IMG/VR virus record: IMGVR_UViG_3300033121_002344
Span: 3,888-67,887 of that record
DNA length: 64,000 nucleotides
Reading direction: 5' to 3' (one strand)
Source of the DNA: a virus
Taxonomy: Duplodnaviria > Caudoviricetes
In this document: piece after piece, positions 48,259 through 64,000 of the stretch
Position numbering within the stretch: position 1 is the first letter of the stretch
Layout: each line of letters begins with the position of its first letter
Made by a program: the position numbers and the translations under genes
The notes under the pieces: generated by a model
What the model was told of the DNA's origin: nothing
The model's input: the letters and a program-made list of their open reading frames with translations, nothing else
Databases searched by the model: none

Positions 48259-48264
48259 GGCCCG

Positions 48265-48295: not shown

Positions 48296-48699
48296 CGGGC
48301 CGTGGCGTCGAGGGCGCTCTGGAGGGAGGCGGTCAGGTTGTCGATGGTGGCGAGGGCCGCTTCGAGGCGCGCCCGGACCTTGGGGTCGAGGGTCGCCCAG
48401 GTCTTCGCCGCATCGGACGGGTGGATGTAGGCGATCACGCGCCGCGGGGTCACGCCTCCACGCAGGACCTTGAAGCCGCACCCGCGGCAGAGGTCCTTGA
48501 CCGGTCGGATGTGGCGGGTCCGGTGCTCGCCCAGCTGGAAGACCAGGTCGCCGGTCTCGAAGGAGCCGCAACCGTTGGCACACTTGTCCGCCACCAGGAC
48601 CGCGCAGGCCGCCTTCCAGTCGAGGTCGCTGACCAGCCGCGAGGGCTTCGGGGTCGAGACCACCTGAAGGGTCCCACGGCCTTCGAATTGGCTCCTCAT
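48292..48699 (-). CDS. Hypothetical Zn-binding protein
   Basis: CANGC...LCRGC. Confidence 0.55.
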   Translation of the reverse strand: MRSQFEGRGTLQVVSTPKPSRLVSDLDWKAACAVLVADKCANGCGSFETGDLVFQLGEHRTRHIRPVKDLCRGCGFKVLRGGVTPRRVIAYIHPSDAAKTWATLDPKVRARLEAALATIDNLTASLQSALDATAR

Positions 48700-48881
48700 C
48701 GTCGGTACTCTCCTCGCTGGATCCGCTGGAAGATCTCCATGAGATCCGGAATCGTGAGCTTCGGCTTCGGCCGCTCCGCCCGCGCCCGGGTCTCCTCGAT
48801 GGTCTCGGTCGGCACCAGGGCCGGGATCGTCGGGGTCTCGTTCTTCTTCTCGTCCTCCACCCGTCCTCCTCGCCGCCGCAT
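48696..48881 (-). CDS. Small hypothetical protein
   Basis: 61 aa; overlaps its neighbour. Confidence 0.45.
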   Translation of the reverse strand: MRRRGGRVEDEKKNETPTIPALVPTETIEETRARAERPKPKLTIPDLMEIFQRIQRGEYRR

Positions 48882-48882
48882 C

Positions 48883-49377
48883 CTAGCGCTCCTCCTGGAG
48901 GGCCCGGAACTCCTCCAGGACGCCTTCCGCCGTCAGCCCTCGGGGGAGGGCCTTCCGGGCGCGGAGCCACCGCTCGAAGGCCTCGCCGACCGGGAGCCGT
49001 TCCTCGAGCCCCGCCACGGCCTCCACGTTGCGCTCAGGCCGGCTCGGGACGATCGGCCGGACGTGGGTCGCCCCCGCGCGCCGAAGGGCCTGTTCGGCCT
49101 CGTGGGGCGCGAAGACCGAGGTCTCGGTCAGCTGGACCAGCACCCGGACGATCGCGCCGCCGACCGAGGCTCCGGACGCCCAGGCATCGTAGTCGGCCTG
49201 GCTGGCCAGCCGCGGGTCCACGAGCCGCAGGGTCAGGAGGTTCGCCGCCGGGAGAGGGTGGAAGTGGGGTAGCTCGATGGAGGGGGCCTCGGGAGCCAAG
49301 GGGGGAACTTGTGTAACGGGGGTATCCGTTCCCGAGGCCCCCTCCGTCGATTGAGATCTGCGTTTGCGCGCCGCCAT
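48883..49377 (-). CDS. Probable SbcD/gp47 C-terminal (capping) domain as a separate gene
   Basis: GAIVRVLV...QALRRAGATHVRPIV...VGEAFERWL; directly after a short SbcD. Confidence 0.5.
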   Translation of the reverse strand: MAARKRRSQSTEGASGTDTPVTQVPPLAPEAPSIELPHFHPLPAANLLTLRLVDPRLASQADYDAWASGASVGGAIVRVLVQLTETSVFAPHEAEQALRRAGATHVRPIVPSRPERNVEAVAGLEERLPVGEAFERWLRARKALPRGLTAEGVLEEFRALQEER

Positions 49378-49387
49378 GACCTGATCA

Positions 49388-50128
49388 TCACAGGTCGAGC
49401 AGCACGTAGCCCTTCGGCTCCATCTCCTCGCCGAAGTCGAGGCGGTCGAGCGACCCTACCACCTGCACCTTCTCCCGCACCACCTGAGGCTTGTGGACGT
49501 GGCCGGCGTAGATGCGCTGCACCCGCGGGTCCTCCTCCATCCAGCGAGGGAGCTCCAGGGCGCCGCCCCGCAGCATCCGCCCCTCCGAGCCCGTCGTCGC
49601 CCCGGGAATGTCGAGGTGGCAGAACACCACCACCTTCGCGTCCGCCGAGAGCTCCGCGAACGTCGATCGCAGGCTCGTCTCCAGCCACTCGACCGCGCTC
49701 AGCCGCCGGCCCTCGACCTCGGGCGCATGGGCGCCGCTCAGGTAGGGCAGGTAGAGGATCGTCTTGCTGCCGATGACCTCGGTCGCCGGGGTCTCGACCA
49801 CCCGCACCAGCAGGCCCGCCAACACCGAGACCGTCGCCCGCGCCCCCACCCCGTGGCTGGAGTCGTCGACCACGTCGTGGTTGCCGGCCAGCAGGACCGA
49901 CCGACACTCGATCCGCTCCAGGAAGCGCCGCGTGCTCGCCAGCGCCCGGATCGTCCGGTTCCCGCTGTCGGGGTCCGTGAGGTCCCCGAGGTGGAGGAAG
50001 AGGTCGACCTTCTCCTGGTCGATGATCCGCTCCAGCCGCGCCAGCTGGGCCTCGAAGGAGACCCAGCGCTCCACCCCCGACCGCGCCGTTTGGTCGAGGT
50101 GCCAGTCAGTGCTCACCAGCGTCTTCAC
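49388..50128 (-). CDS. sbcD: SbcD/Mre11-like metallophosphoesterase nuclease (catalytic domain only)
   Basis: STDWHL, HLGDL, AGNHD, FCH, GHVH, GSLDRLDFGE...KGY. Confidence 0.85.
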   Translation of the reverse strand: MKTLVSTDWHLDQTARSGVERWVSFEAQLARLERIIDQEKVDLFLHLGDLTDPDSGNRTIRALASTRRFLERIECRSVLLAGNHDVVDDSSHGVGARATVSVLAGLLVRVVETPATEVIGSKTILYLPYLSGAHAPEVEGRRLSAVEWLETSLRSTFAELSADAKVVVFCHLDIPGATTGSEGRMLRGGALELPRWMEEDPRVQRIYAGHVHKPQVVREKVQVVGSLDRLDFGEEMEPKGYVLLDL

Positions 50129-50397
50129 GAGACCCCCCGAGGAGGCGCCACGAACCGCGAGACGATGCGCTGCGCCCGCGCTCGGTCGGGGCCGGGCGCC
50201 TGGGCGTTGATCTCCACCGCCTCCAAGACGCCGGCCGCCACCGAGGCCACCACCAGGAGCTCCCGCGCCGGGTCTGGGTTCTCCAGCCCGACGCTCTCGA
50301 TCAGCAGCCCGACCGCTTGCGCGACCCGGGTCCCGCGCTCCTCGCCGAGCTCGCCCTGCATGACCTCGATCAACCGCAGCGCCGTCTCCGTGGTCAC
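50125..50397 (-). CDS. Hypothetical protein
   Basis: 90 aa; overlaps its neighbour. Confidence 0.55.
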   Translation of the reverse strand: MTTETALRLIEVMQGELGEERGTRVAQAVGLLIESVGLENPDPARELLVVASVAAGVLEAVEINAQAPGPDRARAQRIVSRFVAPPRGVS

Positions 50398-51603
50398 CTA
50401 GTCCTCCTCCTCGCGGAACAGGTCCGCGTCCAACGAGCCCGCCAGATCATCGAGCGCCTCCCGGGCCGCCTCCTTCGAGGCGTCGTAGAAGTCCGAGAGC
50501 TTGAAGCTCGCCCCCGAGCGGAACTCGAAGCGGGTACCGGAGGTCATCTTCGGAGCCCCGCGCTCGGCGCTCGGCCCTTCGATGAACTTCCGGACGAGCG
50601 CCTCCGTGAGGATCTCCCGCGGTCGGTCGAAGCCCACCGGAGCCAGCCCCTTGCCGTTCGAGGTGTAGAAGGTCGCCGAGTCGAAGCTGATCCCGTGCTT
50701 GTTTTTGAGCACCTGCGCCCGGTGACGCTTCCCGGTCGGCGGAGCCCCCTCGTCGGAGAGGTCCCGCACCAGCCCGCTGAAGGTCACCCGGACCTGCACC
50801 ATCGCGTCGTAGACGAGCGCGTTCCCGCCTCGAATGTCGTAGGTCTCGCCGCCGCCGTGGACCTGCTTCGGCTGCCCCTCGTGGGCGATCACCAGGAAGA
50901 TGATGTTGTCGTCGCCGATGCGGGGCCCGAGGCCGAGCAGCCACGCCGTGTTCATCATCGCCTGCAGCCGACCGACACCCGACCGCAGCGCCTCGCCGCC
51001 CTCCTTGGTGATCTCCTTCAGGAGCTTCTCCGGGACGAGCTTCGAGATGCTGTCGATCGCGATGAAGAGCGGGGTCTGGGCCGGGATCCGCCCCTTCGCC
51101 TTCCCCTCCTGGAAGCGGTCGAGCACCCCGTCAACCTCCGAGACCGTCTCCTCGTAGGTGAGCGGGGTCGGCTTCTTGGCCTTGTCGCCCGTGCGGCCGA
51201 TGTAGAGGCAGCCCTTCGCGTCGACGCCGAGCCGCCGAAACCACTTCCGGGTGTCGGCCGCGAGCTCCGCATCCACGTAGGTGCCGAGCCCGCGCGCTCG
51301 TCGGGTCGCGTTGAGGAGCTCGCAGATCAGCGCCGTCTTGCCGCCGCCGCTGGGTCCGTGGACCAGCCACACGCACGAGAGGGGCGCACCCCCGACCTTC
51401 GTCGCGCGGTTGAAGGAGGTCATGGAGGTCGGGATGGCCCGGAAGCCCTCGACCTCGCTCATCAGCCGCGCCCGCTCCGACTTCCCCGCGAGCTCCACCA
51501 GGAGGTCCGCCACCTCCGCCTCAGAGACCGGGGCGCGCGCACCTCGCACCCGGCGAGGGGGACGGGTCGCCCCGTCCCCCTGTGCGACCGACCGTCGCGC
51601 CAC
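50398..51603 (-). CDS. recA: RecA/UvsX-like recombinase
   Basis: IPTSMTSFNRATKVGGAP, HGPSGGGKT, YVDAE, IAIDSIS, GGNALVYDA, VLKNK. Confidence 0.9.
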   Translation of the reverse strand: MARRSVAQGDGATRPPRRVRGARAPVSEAEVADLLVELAGKSERARLMSEVEGFRAIPTSMTSFNRATKVGGAPLSCVWLVHGPSGGGKTALICELLNATRRARGLGTYVDAELAADTRKWFRRLGVDAKGCLYIGRTGDKAKKPTPLTYEETVSEVDGVLDRFQEGKAKGRIPAQTPLFIAIDSISKLVPEKLLKEITKEGGEALRSGVGRLQAMMNTAWLLGLGPRIGDDNIIFLVIAHEGQPKQVHGGGETYDIRGGNALVYDAMVQVRVTFSGLVRDLSDEGAPPTGKRHRAQVLKNKHGISFDSATFYTSNGKGLAPVGFDRPREILTEALVRKFIEGPSAERGAPKMTSGTRFEFRSGASFKLSDFYDASKEAAREALDDLAGSLDADLFREEED

Positions 51604-53075
51604 TACTTCTCCCAGGGGACCTTACGGGCCGGAGGGGCGTCCTGATCGCTCGGCGGAGGCGGTTCGTCCTCCGCCGGGGCCGGGGCTCGAGTGGTCGTCG
51701 AAGCCGGAGCCGGCTCGTCCTCGGGCGGGTCGAGCTCCACCCCGCAGAGCGGACACTTCGGCGAGCCGGCCGGGATCCGACCACCGCAGTCCCCGCATTC
51801 TTCGTGGGCCACGGGCGCCCGACGGGGCGCCGCCTTTTCGGGCTCCTTCTCCGGCACCGAGCGCCGGGCCGGGGCCTCGTCCCTCTCCGGCACCGAGCGC
51901 CGGGCCGGCCGCTCCTCCTCACGCGCCGAGCGCCGCGCCGGGGCTTCCTCCTCCCGAGGAGCCGAGCGCCGCGCCGGGGCCTCCTCCTCACGCTCGCGCG
52001 ACGAGCGCCTGGGAGCCTCGTCGTCGCGAGCCGAGCGCCGGGCCGGAGCCTCGTCCCTCTCCGGCACCGAGCGCCGCGCCGGGGCCTCCTCGCGCGACGA
52101 GCGCCGCGCCGGGGCTTCCTCCTCCCGAGGAGCCGAGCGCCGGGCCGGCCGCTCCTCTTCCGGCTCCTCCGAGCGCCGGGACGGCGGTCGAGTCGGAGCC
52201 TCCTCTTCGCCGCGATCGGGCTCCGCCTCCTTGCGCTTCTTCTCGGCCGCATCCCAGACCCGACAGGCCGCCCCGAAGAAGTCTTCGAGCGGGACCTTGA
52301 ACTGCAGCGAGTCCTTGAAGGCCGCCAGCAGCACGTAAGGGTCGCTGGCGTTCACGAACCGCGAGACGTCCGGGGCCGGGCCCGCCCAGAGCTCCCGGAC
52401 CGCCTCCGAGATCTGCACGCGGTCGTTCCGGCTGATCCCGTACTTCCGCGCGTCCTCGTTGTACTTGAAGGTGTAGCAGATGGGCCGCCGGCTCGGGTCG
52501 CCCTCGTCCTCGCCGAGCTCCCGCACGTCGAATTGGATCTGCTGGTCGAGCTCGCTGATGAGCGACCACTTCTCGTTGGTGAGCCGGACGCCCTCGTCCG
52601 GCTTCTTCGGCTGGATGACGCTCAGCAGGAAGTCCGACTTCGGCCGGAAGTCCTCCATGAAGGAGTCGCGGTGCTTACCGCCGCCGAGGAGGTCGAGCCG
52701 GTGGTACTCCCGCACCGTGCGGCCGACCTCGAAGACGAACACCAGGTCGTCGTCGCCGATCTTCGAGGCCTCCAGCCAGTCGAGGAACTTGCAGGCAGGG
52801 CACTGCTTCGGGGTCGCCGCCTCGCCGAAGCGCCGGGCCTTGTGGAAGGCCTCGTCCTCGTGACAAACGAAGGGCAGGTAGCCGAGCGAGAGCGTCTTCT
52901 CCTTCGTCTTGTCGTCGCCCTTCTCCAGGATCTGGTTGAAGTTGTGGAGGTAGCGCTCCCACGGCGGATCGCGGTGCGGCACCACGTCGATGTACCCCGG
53001 GTCCTTCCGCCAGTTATCGAGGAACGAAGCCCCGCCCCGCTTCCCCAAGTTTCGCCAAGACCTCATCTGCGGCAT
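51603..53075 (-). CDS. Probable single-stranded DNA-binding protein with a repeat-rich tail
   Basis: Between UvsY-like and RecA; CPAC motif; charged repeat tail and Zn ribbon (CGDC...CPLC). Confidence 0.6.
   Translation of the reverse strand: MPQMRSWRNLGKRGGASFLDNWRKDPGYIDVVPHRDPPWERYLHNFNQILEKGDDKTKEKTLSLGYLPFVCHEDEAFHKARRFGEAATPKQCPACKFLDWLEASKIGDDDLVFVFEVGRTVREYHRLDLLGGGKHRDSFMEDFRPKSDFLLSVIQPKKPDEGVRLTNEKWSLISELDQQIQFDVRELGEDEGDPSRRPICYTFKYNEDARKYGISRNDRVQISEAVRELWAGPAPDVSRFVNASDPYVLLAAFKDSLQFKVPLEDFFGAACRVWDAAEKKRKEAEPDRGEEEAPTRPPSRRSEEPEEERPARRSAPREEEAPARRSSREEAPARRSVPERDEAPARRSARDDEAPRRSSREREEEAPARRSAPREEEAPARRSAREEERPARRSVPERDEAPARRSVPEKEPEKAAPRRAPVAHEECGDCGGRIPAGSPKCPLCGVELDPPEDEPAPASTTTRAPAPAEDEPPPPSDQDAPPARKVPWEK
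51845..52210 (-). repeat. Coding tandem repeat (about 10 x EEAPARRS-like units)
   Basis: Translation shows EEAPARRSAPR, DEAPARRSVPER and EERPARRS units; DNA unit GAGCGCCGGGCCGG. Confidence 0.85.
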
Positions 53076-53100
53076 GTCCCTGTCCCTTCCCTTCTCCCCG

Positions 53101-53718
53101 CTACTCGCGGTGCTGGATGCGATCGCGGAGCGGTGAGGCTCCGCCAGTGCTGGTGATGAGCGAGCGCAGATCCGAGAGCGAATCGGCGCGCCGCTTCCAG
53201 GCGTCTTCGAGCGACTCGAGGACGTGCGTGGCCGCCTGGAAGTCGCGGTACCGCCGCTCGCGCTCCCGGACCTCGTCCGGCCAGGTCGCGATCACGCGGT
53301 CCCGCACCATGTCGTTCGTGATCTGCTTGCTCTGGATCTCGCCCGACTTCTTGGCCTCGCTGAGGGCGAGGAGCGCGCCGTCCTTCTTCGCCTCCCACCA
53401 CGCCTCGTGGGAGATCTTGAAGAGCTCGTACTCGCGCCGAGCCCGCGCCGAGAGCTTCGCCGCCATGTAGCGCCGGCTCTGGGCGCTGTTGATCGCCTCG
53501 ATGAGCGCCGAGGCCGTCGCCGGATCGCGCTCCCGCAGCCCCTCTTCGAGCTCCCGGTGGACCTGCTCGATGTTGAGCTCGATGATCCCCGTGATGACCG
53601 GGGACCAATTCTCGTCCAGGACGTCCGCCTCCGCGGCGCTGATCGCCCGCCGGGAGGGCACCGATACACGACTTCGGACCGCCCTCACGGGCGGCTTCGC
53701 TTCTTCCTCTGTGGCCAT
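53101..53718 (-). CDS. UvsY-like recombination mediator
   Basis: All-helical; QITNDMVRDRV...LESLEDAWKRRADSL pattern; next to SSB and RecA. Confidence 0.5.
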   Translation of the reverse strand: MATEEEAKPPVRAVRSRVSVPSRRAISAAEADVLDENWSPVITGIIELNIEQVHRELEEGLRERDPATASALIEAINSAQSRRYMAAKLSARARREYELFKISHEAWWEAKKDGALLALSEAKKSGEIQSKQITNDMVRDRVIATWPDEVRERERRYRDFQAATHVLESLEDAWKRRADSLSDLRSLITSTGGASPLRDRIQHRE

Positions 53719-53739
53719 GCTCGTATCATCGCCGCTGCC

Positions 53740-56283
53740 TCACGCATCCCAGGAGACGCCGAGCGAACGCAGCGCCGTCGCGAACCGCACGTCCTCCCGC
53801 GGATGCCGGACCTTCAACCCCGGGACCACGAGCTCGTAGACGCGGCGCTCCTCAGAGGCCCGCACATCGACCCGCAGGTGATGGCTGCCCGGGAAGGCCC
53901 CCAGGAGCTCGCGCAGCGCCGCCGCCTCCGACCAGCTGTCCTCGACCCGCAGCACCAGCCGGTTCGCCGGCTGACGGACCACCCGCCTCGGCTCGCCCCC
54001 GAAGAGGTCGCCCTGTCGCGGGTCCTGCTGGCGCGGCAACACGCACTCGAGCTCCGGCCAGCCCGCCCCCGGGAAGGCCGCCTCCAAGACCCGCTGGGTC
54101 GGCGGGTAGACGTGGTCGTTCCAGTAGAGCGGGAAGCTGACCTGCCCTGCGAGAGGCCCGAGCTCCGTGGGGTGCAGGGCCCCCTTGTCGGTCATCAGGA
54201 ACGGGATCTTCTGCCCCTCGTCGACCTCGACCCCGCGCTCCACCATCCGCGCCGCCACCTCGACGTGGTGGGGCTTGTTGGCGTAGTCGCCCAGCGCCTT
54301 CGTGATCGTCTTGCTGAGCGTCAGGTCTTCGTTCGGCACCCCGCCCGCGAGCAGCGCCTGCCGGCGGTCCTCCACCACCGAGCGGATCTCCTCCGAGGTC
54401 GCGCCCCCGAGCACCAGGTCCACCACCTCGCGCTGCAGGCTGCGCGCCGCTCGACAGACGTCGGACCGCACAATCTCGAGCCCCCGCACGTCCGCCGGGA
54501 TGTTCTCGCCCGCGACCTTGCCCTTGTAGACGGCGAACTTCCCCGCGTACTTCTTCGAGGCCGTCACCAGCACGACCCCAAAGCGCTTCTCGTACCCGAT
54601 CGAGATCTCGCCGGGCTTCGCCCCGTGGGTGGCGACGAGCTCCGGCACCATCTTCTGGTTGACCTCGTCCTGGACGGCCTTCGCGTCCTCGTCGGTTCCC
54701 GTGAAGGCCACCGAGTCCGTGTCGCCGAAGATCAGCCGGTGGCCTCGCCGGCTCACGATGCCGATCGTGTTGGCGAGCAGCATCCGCCCCACCGAGGTCA
54801 CGCTCTCGCCGATCGCCGAGTGGTAGAAGCGTGACCCCTGGGAGAGCACGATCCCGTAGAAGGCGTTGATGACGGCCTTGCAGCCGTCGCTCAGCTGCCC
54901 GAGCTCCGCGTGCTTCGCGGACCCCACCTCCTCCTTGGCCTGCGCGTCCGAGTAGCGCTTGCGCAGCCGGATCAGGTCGAGGAGGGCCGCCGGGATGTGG
55001 CCCTCGGGGTTCGAGCGGAATCGCGCCAGGATCTTGCCGGTCGGCTTGCCCCGCTCGTCGGTGAGCGGGACCGCGATATCGCCCGAGGGGTCCGGGGTCT
55101 CGGGCGAGAGGTTGAAGGCGCGGATGATCGACGGGTACATCCGCGAGTAGTCCAAGACCGCCACCGACCGGTGGAGCCCCACCACCGCCTCGGGGACGAA
55201 GGCACCGCGCGCCTTCGCCCCATCACGCTCGACGTCGCGATAGCGGGTCGGGAAGTGGAAGCCGACCTCGAAGCCCCGCTGCAGCATCTTCCCGTCGATG
55301 AGGGTCGAGGGGTAGAGGGAGTCGCGCCCGGGGAAGATGCGGCAGATCGCGCAGACCGCCAGGTGGAGCCGCACGAAGCCGGTCTTCGCCTCGATCCCCA
55401 CCATCAGGTCGACGTCCTGGTCATTGTACTCGCGCGAGAGCTCTGGGGCGTGCTCCCAGGCCCACTCGATGGCCGCCGCCGCGCCCTCGACCTGCGCCCC
55501 CAGGGCCCGCGCCCGCGCCTCGATCGGCACCTTCCGCTCCCCGAGCAGCGCCTCCCCGATGGCTTCGAGGGCGAAGCTGGAGGTGGTGCCGCCGTCCTTG
55601 CCCCGGAGAAAGTACTTCTTGAAGCACCGGAGGTGGTCGAGCCAGAAGGTCTCCTCGGCGTCGAACGAGACCCCGAGGATCTCGCAGCGCCGTCGGATCA
55701 CCTGCTCATCGAACCGAGCCCCGTTCCAAGCGATCGCGATATCGTGCCTGGCCAGCAGCCGGACCAGCGTCTCCAAGAGGACCCGCTCGGCCGCGTCCGT
55801 CTTCGCCGCGAGGCGCGCGTGGCCCCGCTTCCCCTCCGAGCTCCGCCACGAGAAGGAGAGGATCCGCTCCTGGCCGCCCGGGTCGTCCCACGACCGGATC
55901 CGCTCGGTCTCCAGGTCGTAGTAGAAGAGCCGCCAGTCCTGGGCGATCTGGATCGACGGGCGCTCGATGACGAACCGCCGCACCGGGTCAATGTCGGCCT
56001 CCAGCGGCGAGATCCGACGCGGGACGAAGACCTCGCGTTGGAAGTGGACCAGCCGCCCCTCGCGGTTCCCGTTCGCCCGGATGGGCTCCGGCCACTCGAC
56101 GAACCGGTAGGCCGCGTGCGGGCCCTCGGTGACCATCCGATGCCAGCTGCGGGGTAGGAGATCGACCTCGCGCACGGGCAGGTAGAAGCCATCGCGCGCA
56201 CCCGTCTCGAAGACGCCCCCGGAGCCGCGGAGGAAGATGCGCCCGCGGTCGAAGCGCGCGTGCCTGAGAACGTCCTTCGTCAC
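53740..56283 (-). CDS. Family B DNA polymerase with 3'-5' exonuclease
   Basis: YDLET, AWNGARFD, YNDQD; LDYSRMYPSII, KAVINAFYG, FGDTDS; start re-called to GTG 56283. Confidence 0.95.
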   Translation of the reverse strand: MTKDVLRHARFDRGRIFLRGSGGVFETGARDGFYLPVREVDLLPRSWHRMVTEGPHAAYRFVEWPEPIRANGNREGRLVHFQREVFVPRRISPLEADIDPVRRFVIERPSIQIAQDWRLFYYDLETERIRSWDDPGGQERILSFSWRSSEGKRGHARLAAKTDAAERVLLETLVRLLARHDIAIAWNGARFDEQVIRRRCEILGVSFDAEETFWLDHLRCFKKYFLRGKDGGTTSSFALEAIGEALLGERKVPIEARARALGAQVEGAAAAIEWAWEHAPELSREYNDQDVDLMVGIEAKTGFVRLHLAVCAICRIFPGRDSLYPSTLIDGKMLQRGFEVGFHFPTRYRDVERDGAKARGAFVPEAVVGLHRSVAVLDYSRMYPSIIRAFNLSPETPDPSGDIAVPLTDERGKPTGKILARFRSNPEGHIPAALLDLIRLRKRYSDAQAKEEVGSAKHAELGQLSDGCKAVINAFYGIVLSQGSRFYHSAIGESVTSVGRMLLANTIGIVSRRGHRLIFGDTDSVAFTGTDEDAKAVQDEVNQKMVPELVATHGAKPGEISIGYEKRFGVVLVTASKKYAGKFAVYKGKVAGENIPADVRGLEIVRSDVCRAARSLQREVVDLVLGGATSEEIRSVVEDRRQALLAGGVPNEDLTLSKTITKALGDYANKPHHVEVAARMVERGVEVDEGQKIPFLMTDKGALHPTELGPLAGQVSFPLYWNDHVYPPTQRVLEAAFPGAGWPELECVLPRQQDPRQGDLFGGEPRRVVRQPANRLVLRVEDSWSEAAALRELLGAFPGSHHLRVDVRASEERRVYELVVPGLKVRHPREDVRFATALRSLGVSWDA

Positions 56284-56436
56284 AGGCCGATCTTCACAGG
56301 GCCAGCGTCCATGGGTCCAGACGCGCGAAGGGGTCGGGAGGAGCGTCGCCACTCCTCCCGACCCCAACCCGACAACCAGGGAACCTCAGGCGAGCCCCAT
56401 CTTCGCCCAGCGCAGCGACGCCGGGCAAGGGCCAAT

Positions 56437-56448
56437 CAACCCGGGTTG
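56437..56448. repeat. Dispersed palindrome copy 11 (AAT-core-CTT)
   Basis: Exact core 2 nt past the stop at 56451. Confidence 0.95.
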
Positions 56449-56450
56449 CT

Positions 56451-57479
56451 TCAGTCGACCTTCTGCTTCGGGCAGTGGATCTTGAAGCCCTCGCCGCGGG
56501 GCAGGACCTCGACCACGAACTTCGCGTCGCCGATCCGGAAGCGACCCTGGCCCGCGCCGCGGTCCCAGTTGGTCCACTTGCCCTCGAAGACCACCGTCCC
56601 CATGTCCAGCGTGGCCTTGACCACCACCTTGTTCTCGTGACCGCGCCGCTCGGGGCGCTCGCGCTCGGAGACCTTCTCGCCGTTCGCCTTCTTGGCCGCG
56701 AAGTCGGCCTTGCGCTGCTCGTGGACCTTGTTGGCGAGGGCCGCCTTTGAGGGCTTCTCGACCTTCGCCTCCTCGGTCAGCTTCGCGCGGATCTCCGGGT
56801 CGGGGATCTTCGCCAGCAGCTTGAGGTGGCTGATCGTCAGCCCGGCGATCGACTTCTCGTCCGGGTAGGCGCGCGCCACCCGGATGAAGTCGACCCCGGC
56901 CGTCCGCGAGAAGCCGCACTGCTTCTCCACGTAGTCGGCGAAGCTGTCGAACTTGCCGGCCCAGAGGTTCTTGTCGTGGATCTCCAGGAGCCGCCGGCCG
57001 ATCTCCCAGCCGTTCTTCGCGAGGTTGTCGCGGAGCGACCGGACCTCGGTGGTGAGGGCAGCGAGGCGCGCCGCCACCTCGCCGGGGTTCGTGGTCGGCT
57101 CGACCTTCCCCTTGTCCGCCCCCGCCCCGACGTCGATCACCGGACCGCCGTCCGTCCCGACCACCGCCAGCTTCGCCGCCGCACCCTTGGCCTTCTTCTC
57201 GGCCTTCGCGCTCTTGGCCGCCGCCTGCTCCGCCAATTCCTCGTCGTCGAACTCGAACTTCGCCGCGCAGCCCGGGCAGTGGGTGAGGTCCTTGGTACCC
57301 GGGGACGGGAAGCCGCAGACCGTGCATTCGAGGACCTCGTCGTTCGGGTAGAGGCCGGCCAGCTTCGCCGCCAGGCTCGTGGCGAGCTCGGTCGGGGTCC
57401 ATCCGCCTTCGGCCGGAACCTTGTGCTTCTTGGCGACCTTCTGCAGGTGTTCGGGGTTGAGCTTGGTAGCGGTCAGCAT
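56451..57479 (-). CDS. Zn-ribbon plus DUF3102-like helical DNA-binding protein
   Basis: CTVC...CPGC; WEIGRRLLEIHDKNLW...SFADYVEKQCGFSRTAG. Confidence 0.6.
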   Translation of the reverse strand: MLTATKLNPEHLQKVAKKHKVPAEGGWTPTELATSLAAKLAGLYPNDEVLECTVCGFPSPGTKDLTHCPGCAAKFEFDDEELAEQAAAKSAKAEKKAKGAAAKLAVVGTDGGPVIDVGAGADKGKVEPTTNPGEVAARLAALTTEVRSLRDNLAKNGWEIGRRLLEIHDKNLWAGKFDSFADYVEKQCGFSRTAGVDFIRVARAYPDEKSIAGLTISHLKLLAKIPDPEIRAKLTEEAKVEKPSKAALANKVHEQRKADFAAKKANGEKVSERERPERRGHENKVVVKATLDMGTVVFEGKWTNWDRGAGQGRFRIGDAKFVVEVLPRGEGFKIHCPKQKVD

Positions 57480-58138
57480 GACGTCGTCTCCTCCAGGATC
57501 GGGTTGATGAATGCGAGGTTGATCAGGGTCGAGTCCTTCGAGGGCACCCGCTCACCCCCGATCATCGCGAGAAAGATCGTGTACTGCCGGGGCCCGAGGG
57601 CCGCCCGGGCGCGGTCGATCAGGAGCCGGAGCTCGGCCGCGTGCTCCTGGGTCGGCTCGCAGGCCAGCGCCAGCTGCAGCCCCGCCGGCTCGTGCGGGTC
57701 CTCGTGCTCGGGAAGCTCGTCGAGGAGGACCGGCATGTCGCCGTGGAACCGCTCGCGCCGCACGTACCGGTAGACCTCGTGGTCCATCGCGCGCCCCACC
57801 TTCCGGTGGACGTACTCCAGGAGGTCGAAGCGGGGCCGGGGCGCGCGCCCCTTCTCCAGGAGCTCGGGGTGCTGGCGCGCCACATGGGCCTCGTAGGCCT
57901 CCTCCGTGCGCGCCCCCCGCCGACACCCCGGGCAGCGGAGATGGTAGCTCTGGACCGCCTCCCAGGCCGCCAGGAGGCCCAGCTGTTCGAGGTCCTGGAG
58001 CTCCAGCGGTAGCCGAGCCCATGAAGCGCGCCCGTAGAAGAACCGCGCCATCCGTTGAAAGTAGCGGCTCTGCTCGGCCGCGAACTTGGTGAAGCTGATC
58101 TCGCCCGCCCGTAGGCGGGTCACGTCCTGCAGGTTCAA
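57473..58138 (-). CDS. Sigma70-family factor: region 2 with an inserted C2H2 zinc finger, truncated region 4
   Basis: QDLEQLGLLAAWEAVQSY / FDLLEYVHRKVGRAMDHEVYR; CPGC-x12-H-x4-H insert; TTG start with GGGAGG SD. Confidence 0.7.
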   Translation of the reverse strand: MNLQDVTRLRAGEISFTKFAAEQSRYFQRMARFFYGRASWARLPLELQDLEQLGLLAAWEAVQSYHLRCPGCRRGARTEEAYEAHVARQHPELLEKGRAPRPRFDLLEYVHRKVGRAMDHEVYRYVRRERFHGDMPVLLDELPEHEDPHEPAGLQLALACEPTQEHAAELRLLIDRARAALGPRQYTIFLAMIGGERVPSKDSTLINLAFINPILEETTSC

Positions 58139-58225
58139 TCGTTCCTCCCTCGTTGCCGGCGGTCCGGGTCAGCTTCGGACCAACCCGACCGCCCTCGGAA
58201 TATGCGTGCCTTGCGTCGAAGTCAA

Positions 58226-59710
58226 CTAGGCGCTGACCAGGTAGAGCTCCTGCTTGGCCCGCGTGACCGCGACGTACCAGATGTTCGCCTCTTCGGTCGA
58301 GCGGCTCGGGCGGAAGGTGCTGGTCAGGAGGAAGACCCGGTCGCGCTCCAGCCCCTTGGCCTTGTGGACCGTGCTGAAGACCACCTTCGTGGTGGCGTCG
58401 TCATCGCGGAAGAGGCTCTCCAGCTTCCGCCGCACCGCCTCGACCGTGGGCTCGCCTTCCGCGATGGCCAGGATCGCCTCGACCTGATCGCTCACCAGGT
58501 CGGCCCGCGCCTCCTTGTTGAGCCGGAGGGCGCGCTCCCGCTCCCGCGACTCGTAGGCCCGCAGCCAGGACTCGAGGTCCGCCAGGTCCTGGGCGCCCGA
58601 CTTGTCGATCAGGCCGAGGAGCGTCTTCCCGATATCGCGCCCCTGGATGCAGGCCGGGATCCCGCGCCGCAGGAACCCGAGGCAACCCGAGACCAGCGGG
58701 GCGTTGGCGCGCCCGAGGACGAAGTCGCCGGGCTTCGCGAGGGCCTCGAAGCGCTGGTAGGAGACCTGCTCGACCAGCCCCTCCGGGGCCTCGTCGGCCG
58801 CCCGGTATTGCGGGACGATCTGCTGGGCGATCGCCACCACCTTCTTCGGGCACCGGTAGGTGATGCTGAGGGGGAGGACCGCCGCCCCGAGGGTCTTCGC
58901 CATCTCGTCCATGCCCGAGGCGTGCGAGCCCCGGAACCCGTAGATGGCCTGCCGGCTGTCGCCGACGATGATGATCCGCCCGTTCTCCCGGACCTCGCCG
59001 CGCGCCAGGCTCAGCTGCGCCGCGTTCATGTCCTGGGCCTCGTCGACCACCACCACGTCGTACCGGTGGGAGGCGAGCCCGAACTTCGCCGGGAACCAGA
59101 CCATGTCGTCGAAGTCGATCTCGTCCGTCTTCTCGGCCGCGAGCTCGATGGCCCGGGCCGCCGCCTCGGCGAGGAGGCCGGCCGGGAACTCCTCGTCCTC
59201 GATCGAGTAGTCGATCGCCGCCATCGTCAGCCCCGGCATGTCCTCGACCAGGAGGTTCTTCCCGAGGGCCGCCAGCTTCGCGACCTTGTTGACGTCGGTC
59301 CAGGTCGGCCGGGTCTCCTTGCGCCGCGCGTCGTAGCGCATCCGCTCGGGGAGGACCTCGGTGAGGGCCTGCTCCGCCATCGTGGCCTTCTTCTCGTCGT
59401 TGACCCGCACCGTCCGGAAGCGCCGCCGGATGAGGGCGAAGCCGACGCCGTGCAGGGTCTTGACCTCGACCCCGCGAGGCGCCCGGGCCTTGAGCTCGGT
59501 CTCGATGCTCTTGTTGAAGGCGCAGAGGAGGGTCGAGAGCCCCTCCGGGATCCGCTTCGCCGCCTCGACGATCGTCGTCGTCTTCCCGGTACCCGCGAGG
59601 GCCTCGACCTTGAGGTGGCCGGTCCCGTTCGCGAAGTTGTCGTAGATGGCGGTCTGGAGGGGGGACCAGGTCTTGGCGGTCTTGGTCGTCGTGAACTCGG
59701 TCTGGGTCAT
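58226..59710 (-). CDS. UvrD/Rep-type SF1 helicase
   Basis: ALAGTGKTT, CAFNK, VVVDEAQD, VGDSRQAIYGFRG, TYRCP, STVHKAKGLE, YVAVTRAK. Confidence 0.95.
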   Translation of the reverse strand: MTQTEFTTTKTAKTWSPLQTAIYDNFANGTGHLKVEALAGTGKTTTIVEAAKRIPEGLSTLLCAFNKSIETELKARAPRGVEVKTLHGVGFALIRRRFRTVRVNDEKKATMAEQALTEVLPERMRYDARRKETRPTWTDVNKVAKLAALGKNLLVEDMPGLTMAAIDYSIEDEEFPAGLLAEAAARAIELAAEKTDEIDFDDMVWFPAKFGLASHRYDVVVVDEAQDMNAAQLSLARGEVRENGRIIIVGDSRQAIYGFRGSHASGMDEMAKTLGAAVLPLSITYRCPKKVVAIAQQIVPQYRAADEAPEGLVEQVSYQRFEALAKPGDFVLGRANAPLVSGCLGFLRRGIPACIQGRDIGKTLLGLIDKSGAQDLADLESWLRAYESRERERALRLNKEARADLVSDQVEAILAIAEGEPTVEAVRRKLESLFRDDDATTKVVFSTVHKAKGLERDRVFLLTSTFRPSRSTEEANIWYVAVTRAKQELYLVSA

Positions 59711-59749
59711 CTCAGCCTCGCCGCCGGTCGCCACTTCGACCGGCGGAAT

Positions 59750-59761
59750 CAACCCGGGTTG
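59750..59761. repeat. Dispersed palindrome copy 12 (AAT-core-CTT)
   Basis: Exact core in the helicase 5' leader. Confidence 0.95.
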
Positions 59762-59793
59762 CTTCCGGGATCGTGCTCCGTGCTCGATGACCG

Positions 59794-59823
59794 ACAATTA
59801 AAGCGTGACCCGCGCGCTGTCAA
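59794..59823 (-). promoter_or_regulatory. Host-type promoter (TTGACA-16-TTAATTGT)
   Basis: Consensus -35; same -10 block as the accessory-region copies. Confidence 0.75.
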
Positions 59824-60308
59824 CCCGCTTTCTTCTCCTTCTTCGCTTCTTCGACGACCCACCCCGAAGACTTGAATTGGCCGTGGGTGTACCGCTCGAT
59901 CCGAGCCGCGAGGGCCAGGCTCGGCAGCATCGTCCCGGCCGCCAGTCGGTTGAGGGTCGAGACCGAGGTCTCCAGAGCCTCGGCCACATCCGTCTTCGAC
60001 CGGCCGTCCAGCCACCGCGCGAAGGGGTGCTCGGGGTTCGTCTGCGGCCGACCCGGGGACCGCTCGATCCCCAGCTTCCCCAGCGCCGAGCCCTCGATCT
60101 GCCGCGCCCGCTCCCGGGTGACCGGGGGGACGAGGGCCCTGGCGACTTCGTCGAGGGTCCGCTGCTCCTTCCCCAGGAAGCGCTGCTGGAGCACTTCGAG
60201 CTCCCGGTCGGAGAGCTCCAGGACCTTCTTCGGGCTCTTGAGGGCCCGCTCGACCTGGGTTCGGACGTCAGCCCGCGAGGGGCGCTGGTTCTTCTTCGAA
60301 TTACGCAT
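59820..60308 (-). CDS. Two-domain regulator: RpoD-like sigma region 4 plus Xre/Cro HTH
   Basis: LSDRELEVLQQRF...RTLDEVARALVPPVTRERARQIEGSALGKL; SKTDVAEALETSVSTLNRLAAGTMLPSL. Confidence 0.8.
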   Translation of the reverse strand: MRNSKKNQRPSRADVRTQVERALKSPKKVLELSDRELEVLQQRFLGKEQRTLDEVARALVPPVTRERARQIEGSALGKLGIERSPGRPQTNPEHPFARWLDGRSKTDVAEALETSVSTLNRLAAGTMLPSLALAARIERYTHGQFKSSGWVVEEAKKEKKAG

Positions 60309-60337
60309 GGTGCGCGCTCACAGGTAGCTTCACGCAC

Positions 60338-61366
60338 CTATACCTTTCCGCCCCATTTACGCAACCGAGCCGGCTCCAAGCCGGTCGAATACCGGGCCGG
60401 TGGGGCCTCGTCGATCAGCCCCCTGACCCGCTCCGGGTCGTGGTCGGGTTGGAGGCCGTCGGGCAGCTGGACCGACCGCACCAGGTGTCCGAACCGGAGG
60501 GAGCTCGCCTGGTAGACGAACTTCCGTCCCGCCCCGTCGCCGTCCGGGCAGAGCACGATCTCGCGCCAGGGCTCCAGCAGCTGCGTGCGCTCCTCCGACC
60601 AGGCCGACCCGCAGGCCGCCACCACGTTGCGCTCACCGGCCTTCCGGAGCGCCACCGCGCCCCAGATGCCCTCGACCACCACCACCCGCGGGAACGTGGG
60701 GTCGAGCTCGTCGTAGCCCCACAGGGAGAGCTCCTTCCGAGCCCCCGCGTCCCGCCGGCCCGAGAGCGCCTTCGGGGACCGCGGGTCTCGCGCCTCGTAG
60801 AGGCGCGCCACGAAGTCGACCATTTCGTCCCGCACCACCACCGGGATGATCAGCCGGCTCCCGTAGCTGACCACCTCCGGGCGCCGCTCAGGCGCCGTCG
60901 CGAAGATCCCGAACCGCTCCACGTCGCCCAGGCCGATCCCACGGCCGCTCAAGTAGCGCAGGGCCGGTGACCGGTCGAATCCGTCGATCGCCCGCCACAG
61001 CGGCACGCTGCCCCGCGGGAAGCGAAGCTGGGGGGCCTGGTCGAGCGCCACCTTCGACCGCCACCCGCTGGAGCGCGCCGAGCGAGGCATCCGCAGCCCG
61101 GCGAACCCAGCGAGCCACTCCCGGGCCGCCGCCCGGTCGAGACCCCTGACCACCGCCACGAGGTCGATCGGCCCGCCCCCGAACCCGCACCCGTAGCAGA
61201 CGTGGAGGCCCGCCTTCGGGCCGGTGGGGCAGATCTGCCAGGAGCCCGGGCCTGGCCGGCCCGAGTGCTGATGGGCCGGGTCCGGGCAAGGTCCGCGAAG
61301 CTCCGAGCCCGAGCGCCGGGCCACGACCCCGAGCTCCGCGAGCAGCTTCGCGACGTCGACCCTCAC
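60338..61366 (-). CDS. DnaG-like primase (Zn-binding plus TOPRIM)
   Basis: CPDPAH...CYGC, YLSGRGI, VVVEGIWG, CPDGDGAG. Confidence 0.9.
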   Translation of the reverse strand: MRVDVAKLLAELGVVARRSGSELRGPCPDPAHQHSGRPGPGSWQICPTGPKAGLHVCYGCGFGGGPIDLVAVVRGLDRAAAREWLAGFAGLRMPRSARSSGWRSKVALDQAPQLRFPRGSVPLWRAIDGFDRSPALRYLSGRGIGLGDVERFGIFATAPERRPEVVSYGSRLIIPVVVRDEMVDFVARLYEARDPRSPKALSGRRDAGARKELSLWGYDELDPTFPRVVVVEGIWGAVALRKAGERNVVAACGSAWSEERTQLLEPWREIVLCPDGDGAGRKFVYQASSLRFGHLVRSVQLPDGLQPDHDPERVRGLIDEAPPARYSTGLEPARLRKWGGKV

Positions 61367-62163
61367 TCGCTTCGTTCCTCGCCGAGCGCGAGGACGCCCT
61401 GGCTAAGCCGCCGCGCCGCCGCCTCGCAGAACCGCTCGTCGATCTCGATCCCGACCGCGCGCCGCCTCATCTCCCGCGCCGCCACCAAGGTCGAGCCCGC
61501 GCCCATCGTCGGGTCGAGGATCAGCCCTCCGACCGGGCACGAGTACGAGATCAGCGGACGCAGGATCCCGAGAGGCTTCTGGGTGGGGTGGTCCGCCGAG
61601 CCGTGGCAGTTTCGCGCGTAGACGACGGACCGCATGAGCCGCGGACCTCCATCGCGCGACACGTAGGCGCTGTCCCCGATGTTGCCGGTGTGGGTGGGGC
61701 GCGTCTTCCGGCGCACGGTCCGGGCCGTCGCATCGGCGGTCGTCACCGGGGCCTTGTAGACGTCCTCCCAGCGAGCCGTCGACCGGTAGAGGTGGAGCGC
61801 GTGCTCGTGGACGCGACGGAACCGGTCGGTGTGGAAGCCGCTTCCGTTCTGCTTCTCCCAGACGAGGTCCTGCGAGACCCTCCAGCCGAGCGCCGCGATC
61901 TGATCGGCCTGCGCCATGAACATCCGCAGCGAGCCGAAGCACCAAACGGAGCCCGCGTCCCGCACGGTGGGGCCGGCCGCACGAAGCCACGACAGGTCGC
62001 GCTCGTCCCAGGCGAGGGACGTGTCCCCGTAGGGCGGGTCGGCGAGAAGCAGATCGACGCTTCCGCCCGCGACCGGAGCGGCGAGGGACATCCAGTCGGC
62101 GAGGACGTCCCGGCAATCGCCGAGGTAGATCGTGATGCCGCCGTGCTCGTAGTAGGGCTTCAT
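61363..62163 (-). CDS. Orphan N4/N6 DNA methyltransferase
   Basis: GDCRDVL, LADPPY, HPTQKP, LDPTMGAGST; start re-called to ATG 62163. Confidence 0.9.
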   Translation of the reverse strand: MKPYYEHGGITIYLGDCRDVLADWMSLAAPVAGGSVDLLLADPPYGDTSLAWDERDLSWLRAAGPTVRDAGSVWCFGSLRMFMAQADQIAALGWRVSQDLVWEKQNGSGFHTDRFRRVHEHALHLYRSTARWEDVYKAPVTTADATARTVRRKTRPTHTGNIGDSAYVSRDGGPRLMRSVVYARNCHGSADHPTQKPLGILRPLISYSCPVGGLILDPTMGAGSTLVAAREMRRRAVGIEIDERFCEAAARRLSQGVLALGEERSE

Positions 62164-63551
62164 TCGGTCGGCCCGTCCTCGCGCTCGAAGATGCTCAGGT
62201 CCACCGCCGCCTCGTTGTCGATCAGGTACTTCGCGCCCTCGAAGTCGTAGCGGACGCAGAAGGGGAAGGGCCCACGGCGCTGCTTCAGGCAGTAGAGGTC
62301 GAGGGTGTCGCGCATGTTCCGCCGCCGGCTCTTCGGGGCGCGGATCATCGGCCGGTCGACGCCGAAGATCAGGTCGAGCTCCTCCTCGAAGGCCCCCGCG
62401 TTCTTGATGTGCTCCAGCGACGGAGGCCCCTCGACGCCCTGGCGGTTGAGGTGGTGGACCAGGCAGATATGGACCCCGTAGCGCTTCGCGATCGACTCGC
62501 GGATGCGGATCAGCGCCTGGGTGACGGCCTGCTCGCGTCGATCGCGGAGCGCCTTCCCGACGACGTCGAAGACGAAGAAGCCGAAGCCCTCCTGGGAGAG
62601 GGCCGCCACCACGCTCTCGACGTGGTCGAGGTTCCGTTCGTTCTGGTCGGCCCACTTGTCGGTCGACTGCTCCAGGTGAATAAACGGGTTCTCTTCGATG
62701 ACGAAGCAGTCGTTGCGGAAGAGCTCGGCCGCGTCTGCGATCCGCAGCTTCTCCTGATCGGAGAGGTGCTTGGTGTGCTTTGTGTACCGCTCCGCCGGGA
62801 TCCCCGCCTCGGCCGCGATCATCGAATCGAGGTAGTCGTCACGCCCCATCTCCCAGGCCCCCAGGTAGGTCCGCTTCGAGTTGCGAACCCGCCAGCGGAC
62901 GAGGTGGGAGACGAAGGCGCTCTTGCCCATGCCGGGCCGGCCGACGATCAGGCTCACCGTGGCCGGCGCGAAGCCCGCGCCCAGCATCGAGTCGAGGATC
63001 ACGTTCCCGCTCGGCTCGAAGACGGAGCCGACGATCGACCGCATCCGCATCGTCTCGTAGTAGGCGTCGACGACCGCACCACCCCGCTGGATGTTCCGGA
63101 GGGCGTTGCGGCCGACTCGATCGCCGGCCACCCGCAGCGCACCCGCGAGCGCATCACCGGGCACCTTCGGGTCCTCGCAGAGCTCGACGAGCTTCGGTAC
63201 GTGGTCCCGGAGGAGCTCGAACTTCGCCGCGTCGAGCCGCAGTCGGTCGAGGTGGTAGTCGACGTTCCGGTTCGGCTGGTACTCGGCCTCGATGGCCCGC
63301 AAGTACGCAAACCCGCCGAAGTCCGCGCCGCCGACGAGCGTCTGGAAGGTGTCCTCGCTCCAGGCCATGCCGGCGCGGTCGAGGGCCGTGAGGCCGCGCA
63401 GGATGATCCGGTGGCGCTGGTCGCCGAAGTCGTTGGGCCGGATCGAGACCATGAGCCGCCGCCGCTCCTTGGCGTCGTGGATCATCGTCGCCAGCACGAC
63501 CCGCTCGTTCGCGAGGTCGAACTCCACCACCCTGCCACCGCGGTCCGCCAC
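62160..63551 (-). CDS. DnaB-like replicative helicase
   Basis: ERVVLATMI N-domain, GRPGMGKS, HHLNR, IKNAGAFEEELD; start re-called to GTG 63551. Confidence 0.9.
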   Translation of the reverse strand: MADRGGRVVEFDLANERVVLATMIHDAKERRRLMVSIRPNDFGDQRHRIILRGLTALDRAGMAWSEDTFQTLVGGADFGGFAYLRAIEAEYQPNRNVDYHLDRLRLDAAKFELLRDHVPKLVELCEDPKVPGDALAGALRVAGDRVGRNALRNIQRGGAVVDAYYETMRMRSIVGSVFEPSGNVILDSMLGAGFAPATVSLIVGRPGMGKSAFVSHLVRWRVRNSKRTYLGAWEMGRDDYLDSMIAAEAGIPAERYTKHTKHLSDQEKLRIADAAELFRNDCFVIEENPFIHLEQSTDKWADQNERNLDHVESVVAALSQEGFGFFVFDVVGKALRDRREQAVTQALIRIRESIAKRYGVHICLVHHLNRQGVEGPPSLEHIKNAGAFEEELDLIFGVDRPMIRAPKSRRRNMRDTLDLYCLKQRRGPFPFCVRYDFEGAKYLIDNEAAVDLSIFEREDGPTE

Positions 63552-63615
63552 GGGCTGATCTTCGCGCAACGGGCCTCGTCCCGACAGCAGGAGGCCCGTC
63601 GGGCCAGCTGCCGTA

Positions 63616-64000
63616 TCAACCCGGGTTGCTTCGTCGCCGGTCGCGGAGCTCTTCGAGCTCGGCCTCGGTGAGGAGGTCCCGCATCTCGCCGGCCCGCCAG
63701 GCGTCGAGCACACGCTGCACCCGGCCGCCGATGACGTCCGGGTCGAGGTGCGGGAACGGAGGCCCGGGCCACCGCTCGCCCTTCTCCTTCCGAGCCCGCC
63801 ACCAGCGAGGCACCGTCGAGAGCGCGAGCCGGAACTCCACACGGTCGGCCGCGAAGGTGCGGTTGATCGTCGTGTTGATGAGCCGCCAGAGCCGCTCCCG
63901 GTCCGCCTTCGTTCGGGGCCAGGCCGTCTCGTCCTCGACCCCGAAGAGCCGGTGGATGTTCGACCGCCAGGCCGCACAGAACTCCGCCGCGTTGATCGCC
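63616..64000 (-). CDS. 3' part of a gene upstream of the helicase (possible initiator/loader)
   Basis: Frame open from the window edge to TGA 63616; ends SNPG*. Confidence 0.55.
   Translation of the reverse strand, partial: AINAAEFCAAWRSNIHRLFGVEDETAWPRTKADRERLWRLINTTINRTFAADRVEFRLALSTVPRWWRARKEKGERWPGPPFPHLDPDVIGGRVQRVLDAWRAGEMRDLLTEAELEELRDRRRSNPG
63617..63628. repeat. Dispersed palindrome copy 13 (TAT-core-CTT)
   Basis: Exact core; supplies the TGA stop. Confidence 0.95.

Follow-up and report, generated by a model that had tools for sequence, protein, structure and literature searches.

The stretch of viral DNA analysed here (64,000 nucleotides, hereafter the window) comprises bases 3888–67887 of a linear IMG/VR record of 67,887 bp, IMGVR_UViG_3300033121_002344, from an uncultured virus of the Caudoviricetes. 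At positions 59820..60308, on the minus strand, it encodes a 162-aa protein, P0001, in which region 4 of a primary-type sigma factor (sigma-4) is fused to a complete Cro-type helix-turn-helix (HTH) domain. As a phage protein of sigma-70 descent, P0001 probably diverts RNA polymerase or blocks it, and the reading that we favour, with a probability somewhat below one half (about 0.45), is that of a regulator coupling a site on the phage DNA to RNA polymerase.

The gene starts with ATG and ends with a TGA that is included in these coordinates. It was supported by the list of open reading frames (ORFs), by Pfam and by codon-position G+C content, which marked it as a real gene like its neighbours (GC3, for third codon positions, 0.90; GC2, for second positions, 0.48). 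The AlphaFold2 model of P0001, built on a 46-row alignment, reached a mean predicted local distance difference test (pLDDT) score of 90.2 and contained two helical domains with a 15-residue linker: the sigma-4 helices lie at residues 12–23, 34–45, 52–58 and 65–78, the linker at 79–94 and a five-helix domain at 95–161. A sequence-only reading of the window had proposed that 59820–60308 joins a sigma-4 of the RpoD type to a complete Xre/Cro HTH, and this was borne out by Pfam, by the Protein Data Bank (PDB) and by the model; the peptide that it had quoted as similar to region 4.2 is residues 50–79, inside the sigma-4 domain. No Sigma70_r2 match was found in P0001, the 162 residues being filled by sigma-4, linker and Xre domain in Pfam, NCBIfam and the model; having no region 2, P0001 is therefore not a sigma factor by itself. 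It was the sole protein with a detectable Xre HTH or sigma-4 domain among the 76 ORFs of the window and in the whole record, and the literature that could be searched contained no description of fusions of sigma-4 with a Cro-type domain.

The sigma-4 domain (60069..60275, minus strand; residues ~12–80) comprises a helix preceding region 4.1, region 4.1 (LSDRELEVLQQRF) and the HTH of region 4.2 (TLDEVARALVPPVTRERARQIE). Pfam Sigma70_r4 (PF04545) matched residues 31–79 with an E-value of 1.4e-8 and 34.5 bits against a cut-off of 24.1, the best NCBIfam matches were the C-terminal ends of the RpoD, RpoH and RpoS models, and phmmer against all PDB sequences returned 50 chains, every one of them an RpoD, SigA or RpoS sigma-4. 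The NCBIfam and PDB similarity begins at residue 8–13 and so includes the helix before 4.1, the retention of which exceeds the needs of a bare DNA-binding HTH. The four-helix sigma-4 fold was present in the model, which superposed on region 4 of Thermus aquaticus SigA (1ku3) with Z 8.1 and 1.7 Å root-mean-square deviation (rmsd) over 56 residues at 45% identity, and on 3n97_D with an rmsd of 1.1 Å over 48 residues at 52% identity. Judged by its sequence, the domain is of the primary or group 2–3 type and not of the extracytoplasmic function (ECF) or LuxR type.

P0001 and its only full-length relative, P0003, agree both in region 4.1, with the motif L-x-D-R-E-x-x-V-L-x-x-R-F, and in the reading helix, with V-T-R-E-R-x-R-Q-I-E. 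Residues R35, R43, R65, E66, R69 and Q70 of P0001 are all present and are invariant in P0003 (an alignment of two members); we take them to correspond to E. coli R554, R562, R584, E585, R588 and Q589. In E. coli sigma-70 and T. aquaticus SigA, the residues at these six positions touch the TTGACA hexamer and its backbone. As the canonical contact residues are kept, the sigma-4 of P0001 looks competent to read a -35 element. The HTH turn of P0001 contains a two-residue PP insertion that P0003 does not have and that is also found in a few sigma factors of 300–353 aa with regions 2, 3 and 4 and in some small metagenomic sigma-4-only proteins. Compared with region 4 of the primary sigma factors (RpoD/SigA and RpoS; PF04545; 1ku3, 1ku7, 1rio_H and 4g6d), P0001 has the same fold and 45–52% identity over ~50–56 residues, and it agrees with them in the 4.1 motif, in the HTH and in the reading helix TRERxRQIE; unlike them, it has no regions 1–3, carries the PP insertion and has a second DNA-binding domain in place of the sigma C-terminus.

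The linker with its basic arm (IERSPGRPQTNPEH; 60027..60068, minus strand; residues 81–94) is conserved between P0001 and P0003, and the linker with its SPGRP arm is among the best conserved stretches of their alignment, which suggests that the sigma-4 and Cro domains work as a single unit. The remainder of the protein is a Cro/HigA/YdaS-type Xre HTH domain (59823..60026, minus strand; residues 95–162), assigned by HTH_3 and by structural matches. Pfam HTH_3 (PF01381) matched residues 102–140 marginally (E-value 4.5e-5, 23.8 bits against a cut-off of 23), and among the 46 relatives of the C-domain it was found in 43, with a best E-value of 4.9e-12, YdaS in ten and P22_Cro in six. The modelled C-domain, which has the five-helix Xre fold, superposed on HigA, YdaS, CylR2, DdrO and P22 c2 with Z 7.3–8.6 over 58–70 residues; the values for HigA ranged from Z 8.1 to 8.6 (3trb_B, Z 8.6; 6lb3_G, Z 8.4 over 69 residues), and YdaS 8co2_A gave an rmsd of 1.3 Å over 58 residues. 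A basic arm and first helix, G-R-P-R...P-F-x-R-W-L-D, are common to the stand-alone Cro-like relatives, and in P0001 the arm is the linker. In isolated phages these stand-alone relatives carry a Cro-like annotation, and in Paracoccus phage Pthi1 the Cro-like gene is divergent and stands beside a CI-like repressor, the classical cro position. The C-domain fold, the GRP arm and the PFxRWLD helix of P0001 match those of Cro-like, YdaS and HigA Xre proteins (Pthi1 Cro-like; 8co2, 6lb3 and 3trb); these relatives are single-domain proteins of 70–110 aa, whereas a true sigma-4 stands in front only in P0001 and P0003. The variability in two alignments of the Cro-like domain was too great to scan with patterns, and a MAFFT alignment that mixed sigma-4-only with Cro-only proteins misplaced the sigma-4 sequences and was kept out of folding.

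Residues 79–101 of P0001 (window 60006–60074; L-G-I-E-R-S-P-G-R...F-A-R-W-L-D) also resemble the C-terminal tail of primary sigma factors, with its pattern L-R-H-P-S-R-S...L-R-x-F/Y-L-D, and the HMMER alignments of P0001 with SigA run on to residue 89–90. The fusion point may be a native sigma C-terminus, or the resemblance may have arisen by chance.

Promoter-like sites of the TTGAC class were located by a direct pattern search, and a scan with the strict sigma-70 consensus yielded no promoter in 48000–64000. Seven such sites lie on the minus strand (59823, 58225, 48295, 47806, 41120, 25570 and 23914) and have a common spacer sequence, TTGACyyyGGCGCG; three of them also have the box TAATTGTCGGTC in common, and at 25570 an ATG comes immediately after. 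There were none below 23 kb, where the structural genes lie. The site TTGACA-17 nt-TAATTG at 59795..59823 (minus strand) holds the TGA stop codon of P0001 inside its -35 hexamer (59818–59823), and TTGACT-17 nt-TATTCC at 58196..58225 (minus strand) comes directly after the stop of a helicase gene and upstream of the gene for P0002, a putative sigma-like protein described below.

Based on these features, we propose that P0001 would be an early-expressed transcription regulator in which two modules read DNA independently. One of them, of the Cro/HigA type, bearing the basic arm and probably dimeric, would anchor the protein at a site on the phage DNA, and the RpoD-type sigma-4 module would dock on the beta-flap of RNA polymerase and/or occupy the TTGAC -35 hexamer; P0001 would thereby alter the use of host-type TTGAC promoters, with region 2 supplied by the host primary sigma or by P0002. 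Such an arrangement could be regarded as a hard-wired version of the contact between lambda cI and sigma-4, or as a one-chain analogue of sigma appropriation. The analysis shows the two domains with their folds, the retention of the canonical sigma-4 residues, the uniqueness of the protein within the record and the place of its gene; we infer which DNA is bound, that the flap is contacted, that the protein dimerises and in which direction it regulates. The beta flap-tip helix is bound by sigma region 4, a contact that phages such as T4 retarget (PMC6755090). We favour the coupling of a DNA site to RNA polymerase because the sigma-4 is near-canonical and keeps the pre-4.1 helix, which is more than a bare HTH needs; because there are seven TTGAC-type sites, one over the P0001 stop codon and one before P0002; and because the stand-alone members of the C-domain family occupy the classical cro position. 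The well-conserved linker, the presence of only one Xre HTH in the record and the recurrence of the domain pairing in a marine-phage family, described below, point the same way.

Several observations weigh against this reading. The TTGAC class may belong to a host sigma as well as to a phage sigma. The top structural match of the N-domain was YlxM (1xsv_A, Z 9.6), LuxR/RcsB types matched too, and the sigma-4 fold serves elsewhere as a plain DNA-binding domain. The residues of region 4.1 also serve the fold and the DNA backbone, so their conservation is no proof of flap binding. Finally, the P0001 gene has primase and helicase as its neighbours within a replication operon and is not part of a classical regulatory switch.

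A less likely alternative is that P0001 is a two-HTH repressor that makes no contact with RNA polymerase, its sigma-4 merely reading TTGAC-like DNA and, jointly with the Cro module, silencing sites in the way that Cro occludes a -35 element. Early promoters offer one possible target in the form of a composite operator, for instance TTGACyyyGGCGCG in their -35 and spacer. P0001 retains every DNA-contact residue, a conserved box follows directly on TTGAC in 5–7 promoters, and the box lies about one helical turn away, within the span of the 15-residue linker; the spacer conservation, however, could stem from duplicated promoter cassettes. Isolated sigma-4 domains are known to bind -35 DNA (PDB 1ku7), and the Cro-like relatives are repressors by annotation and position. 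On the other side, a pure DNA binder need not keep 45–52% identity to SigA region 4, pre-4.1 helix included.

The other possible target of such a repressor is the 12-bp palindrome CAACCCGGGTTG, the arms and flanks of which (TTGCTT/TTGATW) resemble a -35 hexamer. The window contains 13 exact copies against 0.07 expected; they lie beside or overlap stop codons, occasionally fall within ORFs, and have flanks of one polarity. Copy 12 (59750..59761, on neither strand in particular) lies 58 nt past the P0001 stop codon and is a candidate operator, and P0001 might plausibly bind the palindrome. A set of thirteen identical palindromes is what the regulon of a global repressor typically shows, and no HTH protein besides P0001 was detectable; yet the majority of the 76 ORFs are without an assigned function, and the palindrome binder may be another protein. 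The palindrome was also considered as a substitute for a -35 element and rejected: at 28289 and 44752 a Shine-Dalgarno sequence and start codon follow only 14–20 nt beyond it, and its distances to the GAWGAT boxes described below range from 8 to ~140 nt. With the extended palindrome as probe there were no matches in IMG/VR; in metagenomes there were 80 single-copy matches, and no homologue of any of the 76 proteins of the window was encoded with them. The arms and flanks (e.g. 59745–59766) give TTGCTT on one strand; on the opposite strand the sequence is TTGATA, TTGATT or TTGTTA, so that the palindrome appears as two inverted -35-like hexamers around CCCGGG, and the record also encodes an N6_N4 DNA methylase. 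CCCGGG is the SmaI/XmaI site.

A further sequence class bears on the remaining alternatives. At least 17 genes without a Shine-Dalgarno sequence have the box GyGAWGATcgg at a distance of exactly 6 nt ahead of their start codon (minus strand: 63563, 56295, 53730, 49389, 45702, 43516, 39917, 39370, 37762, 35771, 34384, 34057, 32887, 27854, 18499, 18108 and 13878), and 25 of the 119 minus-strand GANGAT occurrences lie 5–8 nt before a good ORF start. Two positions are key in a -10 element, the second (A) and the sixth (T). GAWGAT matches both, and a class of -35-less leaderless promoters is therefore a reasonable reading of these boxes; they could alternatively be a translation signal. No conserved sequence was found upstream of the boxes, thus no -35 partner, and the class therefore would need no -35 reader.

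We regard as unlikely, more so than the two-HTH repressor, a special case of the favoured mechanism in which P0001 is one part of a split sigma. Region 2 on the beta-prime clamp helices would then be provided by P0002, region 4 on the beta-flap by P0001, and the Cro domain would be an added reader of promoter or enhancer DNA. P0002 (57473..58138, minus strand; 221 aa) may be a divergent protein of the sigma-2 type; it contains a C-x2-C...H-x4-H insert, and no region 4.2 is recognisable in it. It had no match above threshold in Pfam, PHROG or the PDB sequences: TIGR02937 aligned weakly (E-value 0.05, residues 31–190 to profile positions 11–127 of 165), and Sigma70_r2 scored 12.5 bits, below its cut-off of 24, over residues ~41–65. 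ESM Atlas gave a feature score of 0.95 to viral Sigma70_r2 clusters and TM scores (template modelling) of 0.46–0.50 to models of ECF-type sigma factors, and hhalign against four group 1/3 sigma factors gave nothing. By eye, a fit to regions 2.2 and 2.3–2.4 is given by the stretch LGLLAAWEAV, the insert C-x2-C...H-x4-H and the stretch EYVHRKVGRAMDHEVYRY, and the C-terminus has two 4.1-like helices and no HTH; the single-sequence AlphaFold2 model was poor (pLDDT 44). Taken together, these features make P0002 sigma-like with odds of roughly two in three. A sigma gene had been reported at 1.7 kb from P0001 in the sequence-only reading; the distance held (59820 to 58138, 1,682 nt), and the sigma identity of P0002 found weak support.

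For a split sigma speak the weak but consistent sigma-2 signals in P0002, which has no 4.2 HTH, the complementary domain content, P0001 holding the only sigma-4 in the record, and the palindromes that precede several GAWGAT-box genes at variable distances. No further sigma-like gene was found in the record besides P0001 and P0002. T4 genes 55 and 33 are unlinked, so adjacency of split-sigma genes is not universal. Precedents are established in Tn916 Sig7–Sig8, SPO1 gp33/gp34 and T4 gp55/gp33 (bioRxiv 10.64898/2026.10.01.756105) and in SigO–RsoA (PMC2795558, cited in PMC7826278). As in these systems, P0001 is a sigma-4-only polypeptide encoded apart from a possible sigma-2-type polypeptide on a mobile element. 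However, P0002 stays below every curated cut-off, and the hhalign comparison was empty; it keeps its own 4.1-like helices, and the two proteins are therefore not complementary fragments of one domain; the GAWGAT class makes a -35 reader unnecessary; and P0001 carries an extra Cro domain. The two genes are also neither adjacent nor co-transcribed, in contrast to sigO-rsoA, sig7-sig8 and SPO1 33-34: the helicase gene and the TTGAC promoter-like sites 59823 and 58225 lie between them, and P0001 is upstream in transcription order. P0002 belongs to a separate transcription unit: ahead of it lie the promoter-like site TTGACT-17-TATTCC, a leader with structure and, as ribosome-binding site, GGGAGG. 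A complex prediction of P0001 (46-row alignment) with P0002 gave a score of 0.00, which, made without controls, bears neither way on binding.

A more elaborate form, which we consider quite improbable, would make P0001 a portable -35 reader. Its sigma-4 would sit on the beta-flap of a polymerase carrying the sigma-2-only P0002 or a host sigma with displaced region 4, and its Cro domain would sit on the 13 palindromes scattered over the window and so provide the -35-less GAWGAT promoters with a fixed enhancer anchor. If true, such a protein would correspond to T4 gp33/gp45 in a DNA-tethered form and be part of a previously undescribed three-part system of promoter recognition. Very improbable, finally, is a sigma-4 decoy that titrates binders, from host or phage, of region 4 in the primary sigma of the host (an anti-sigma or WhiB-, Rsd- or AsiA-like factors), with the Cro domain only localising or dimerising P0001: many regulators target sigma-4, and the best Foldseek rows were complexes of SigA region 4 with WhiB and with phage G1 ORF67, but no candidate ligand was identified in the record, and the conserved DNA-reading residues and linker would be left unexplained.

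We further explored how widely such fusions occur. An exhaustive HMMER search with P0001 over 1.84 billion representative proteins gave 57 matches with a single full-length relative, P0003 (149 aa, 53% identity, E-value 1e-29; Sigma70_r4 61.1 bits), which is encoded on one metagenomic Logan contig of 8.2 kb. About 45 of the 57 were stand-alone proteins of 70–120 aa aligned to residues 80–155 only, and a few were sigma factors or sigma-4-only proteins aligned to residues 10–90 only. The fusion in the order sigma-4 then Cro thus has two known members, P0001 and P0003, both metagenomic. In a word-index search P0001 and P0002 each matched only themselves; none of P0001, P0002 and the 11-kb region had a tblastn or megablast match in 50,697 phage records; IMG/VR scans with P0001, P0002 and the polymerase gave zero relatives; and a metagenome scan with the alignment of P0001 and P0003 gave no relative. 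A genome scan found only host primary sigma factors and one 401-aa protein with an N-terminal sigma-4 that was otherwise unrelated. This protein (L042:4229-5434, from a metagenome-assembled genome of Gammaproteobacteria) continues with ~300 residues of another kind and represents another non-sigma use of a primary-type sigma-4. The ESM Atlas neighbours of P0001 were viral Sigma70_r4 clusters, some with HTH_3, at scores of 0.86–0.88 that serve as leads only.

The viral contigs recovered with P0003 encode an uncharacterised marine-phage family of ~200 aa with an N-terminal HTH_35 (Ner/Cro-like) and a C-terminal Sigma70_r4 (E-value 3e-16), for example at L006:9659-10261 and L009:4535-5146 (IMG/VR contigs). 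This family comprises more than 100 clusters at 90% identity on contigs of up to 153 kb, and its annotations are inconsistent (sigma-70 family, XRE regulator, lambda-repressor-like). Four viral fragments with the family, 18–57% complete, contained no Sigma70_r2. It has the same two domain types as P0001 in one small phage protein, in reversed order and without detectable homology beyond sigma-4; the pairing of sigma-4 with a Cro-like domain therefore recurs. In L006 the gene is directly upstream of a small-terminase-like gene, whereas the P0001 gene is in a replication operon. Other metagenomic combinations were also observed: two sigma-4 domains in tandem (P0014, 176 aa), sigma-4 only (P0051 and P0057, 74–79 aa), two Cro-like domains in tandem (P0008), GIY-YIG joined to a Cro-like domain (P0016), and a degenerate HTH, containing SRERVGQI, in front of a Cro-like domain (P0042).

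Known phage routes to host RNA polymerase are limited in number: complete sigmas, split sigmas, remodelling of sigma-4 by AsiA/MotA, the flap binders gp33/gp39, and the sigma-4 binder gp67. If P0001 does couple a DNA site to RNA polymerase, a near-canonical phage sigma-4 tied covalently to a Cro-type site reader would be an added route, in which a second sigma-4 is supplied pre-addressed to a DNA site; the recurrence of the pairing in a large marine-phage family suggests that this may be a general principle and not a one-off fusion. If P0001 instead is a repressor reading -35 hexamers, it would be a compact tool to shut down housekeeping-type promoters. Among known arrangements, lambda cI with sigma-4 at PRM (PDB 1rio; class II activation) likewise places a cI/Cro-type HTH and a sigma-4 side by side on promoter DNA, and 1rio_H was among the best structural matches of the P0001 N-domain; unlike in lambda, P0001 is one polypeptide, and its sigma-4 is phage-encoded and does not come from the sigma of the holoenzyme. 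In T4 sigma appropriation by AsiA and MotA (PMC6755090), the sigma-4/beta-flap position is taken and a phage-specific reader replaces -35 recognition. There, however, host sigma-4 is remodelled by unrelated proteins, whereas P0001 would bring its own sigma-4, and P0001 has no sequence or fold relation to AsiA or MotA.

The record is 84% complete by CheckV estimate, the window has a G+C content of ~70% throughout, and all ORFs with coding-type codon-position GC lie on the minus strand. The replication module is transcribed from high to low coordinates. It runs from a DnaB-like helicase (62160-63977) through a DNA methylase to a Toprim primase (60338-61366) directly before P0001, which is followed by a UvrD-like helicase (58226-59797; likely true start an ATG near 59711). 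After P0002 come a zinc-ribbon/DUF3102 protein of 342 aa (56451-57479) and a family-B DNA polymerase (53740-56367); the polymerase had only matches of 22–25% identity. Before the start of P0001 there is neither a Shine-Dalgarno sequence nor a GAWGAT box, and an inverted repeat, GGTGCG...CGCACC, occupies the 30 nt that separate the primase stop from the P0001 ATG (window 60309–60338). A perfect hairpin with a 10-bp stem (59721..59746, minus strand) lies between palindrome copy 12 and the Shine-Dalgarno sequence and ATG of the helicase, and the RNA fold of 59700–59830 had a z-score of -2.4. The stop of P0002 and the start of the zinc-ribbon/DUF3102 gene overlap by 7 nt (ATGCTGA, window 57473–57479), which suggests that the putative sigma is translationally coupled to this uncharacterised, possibly DNA-binding protein.

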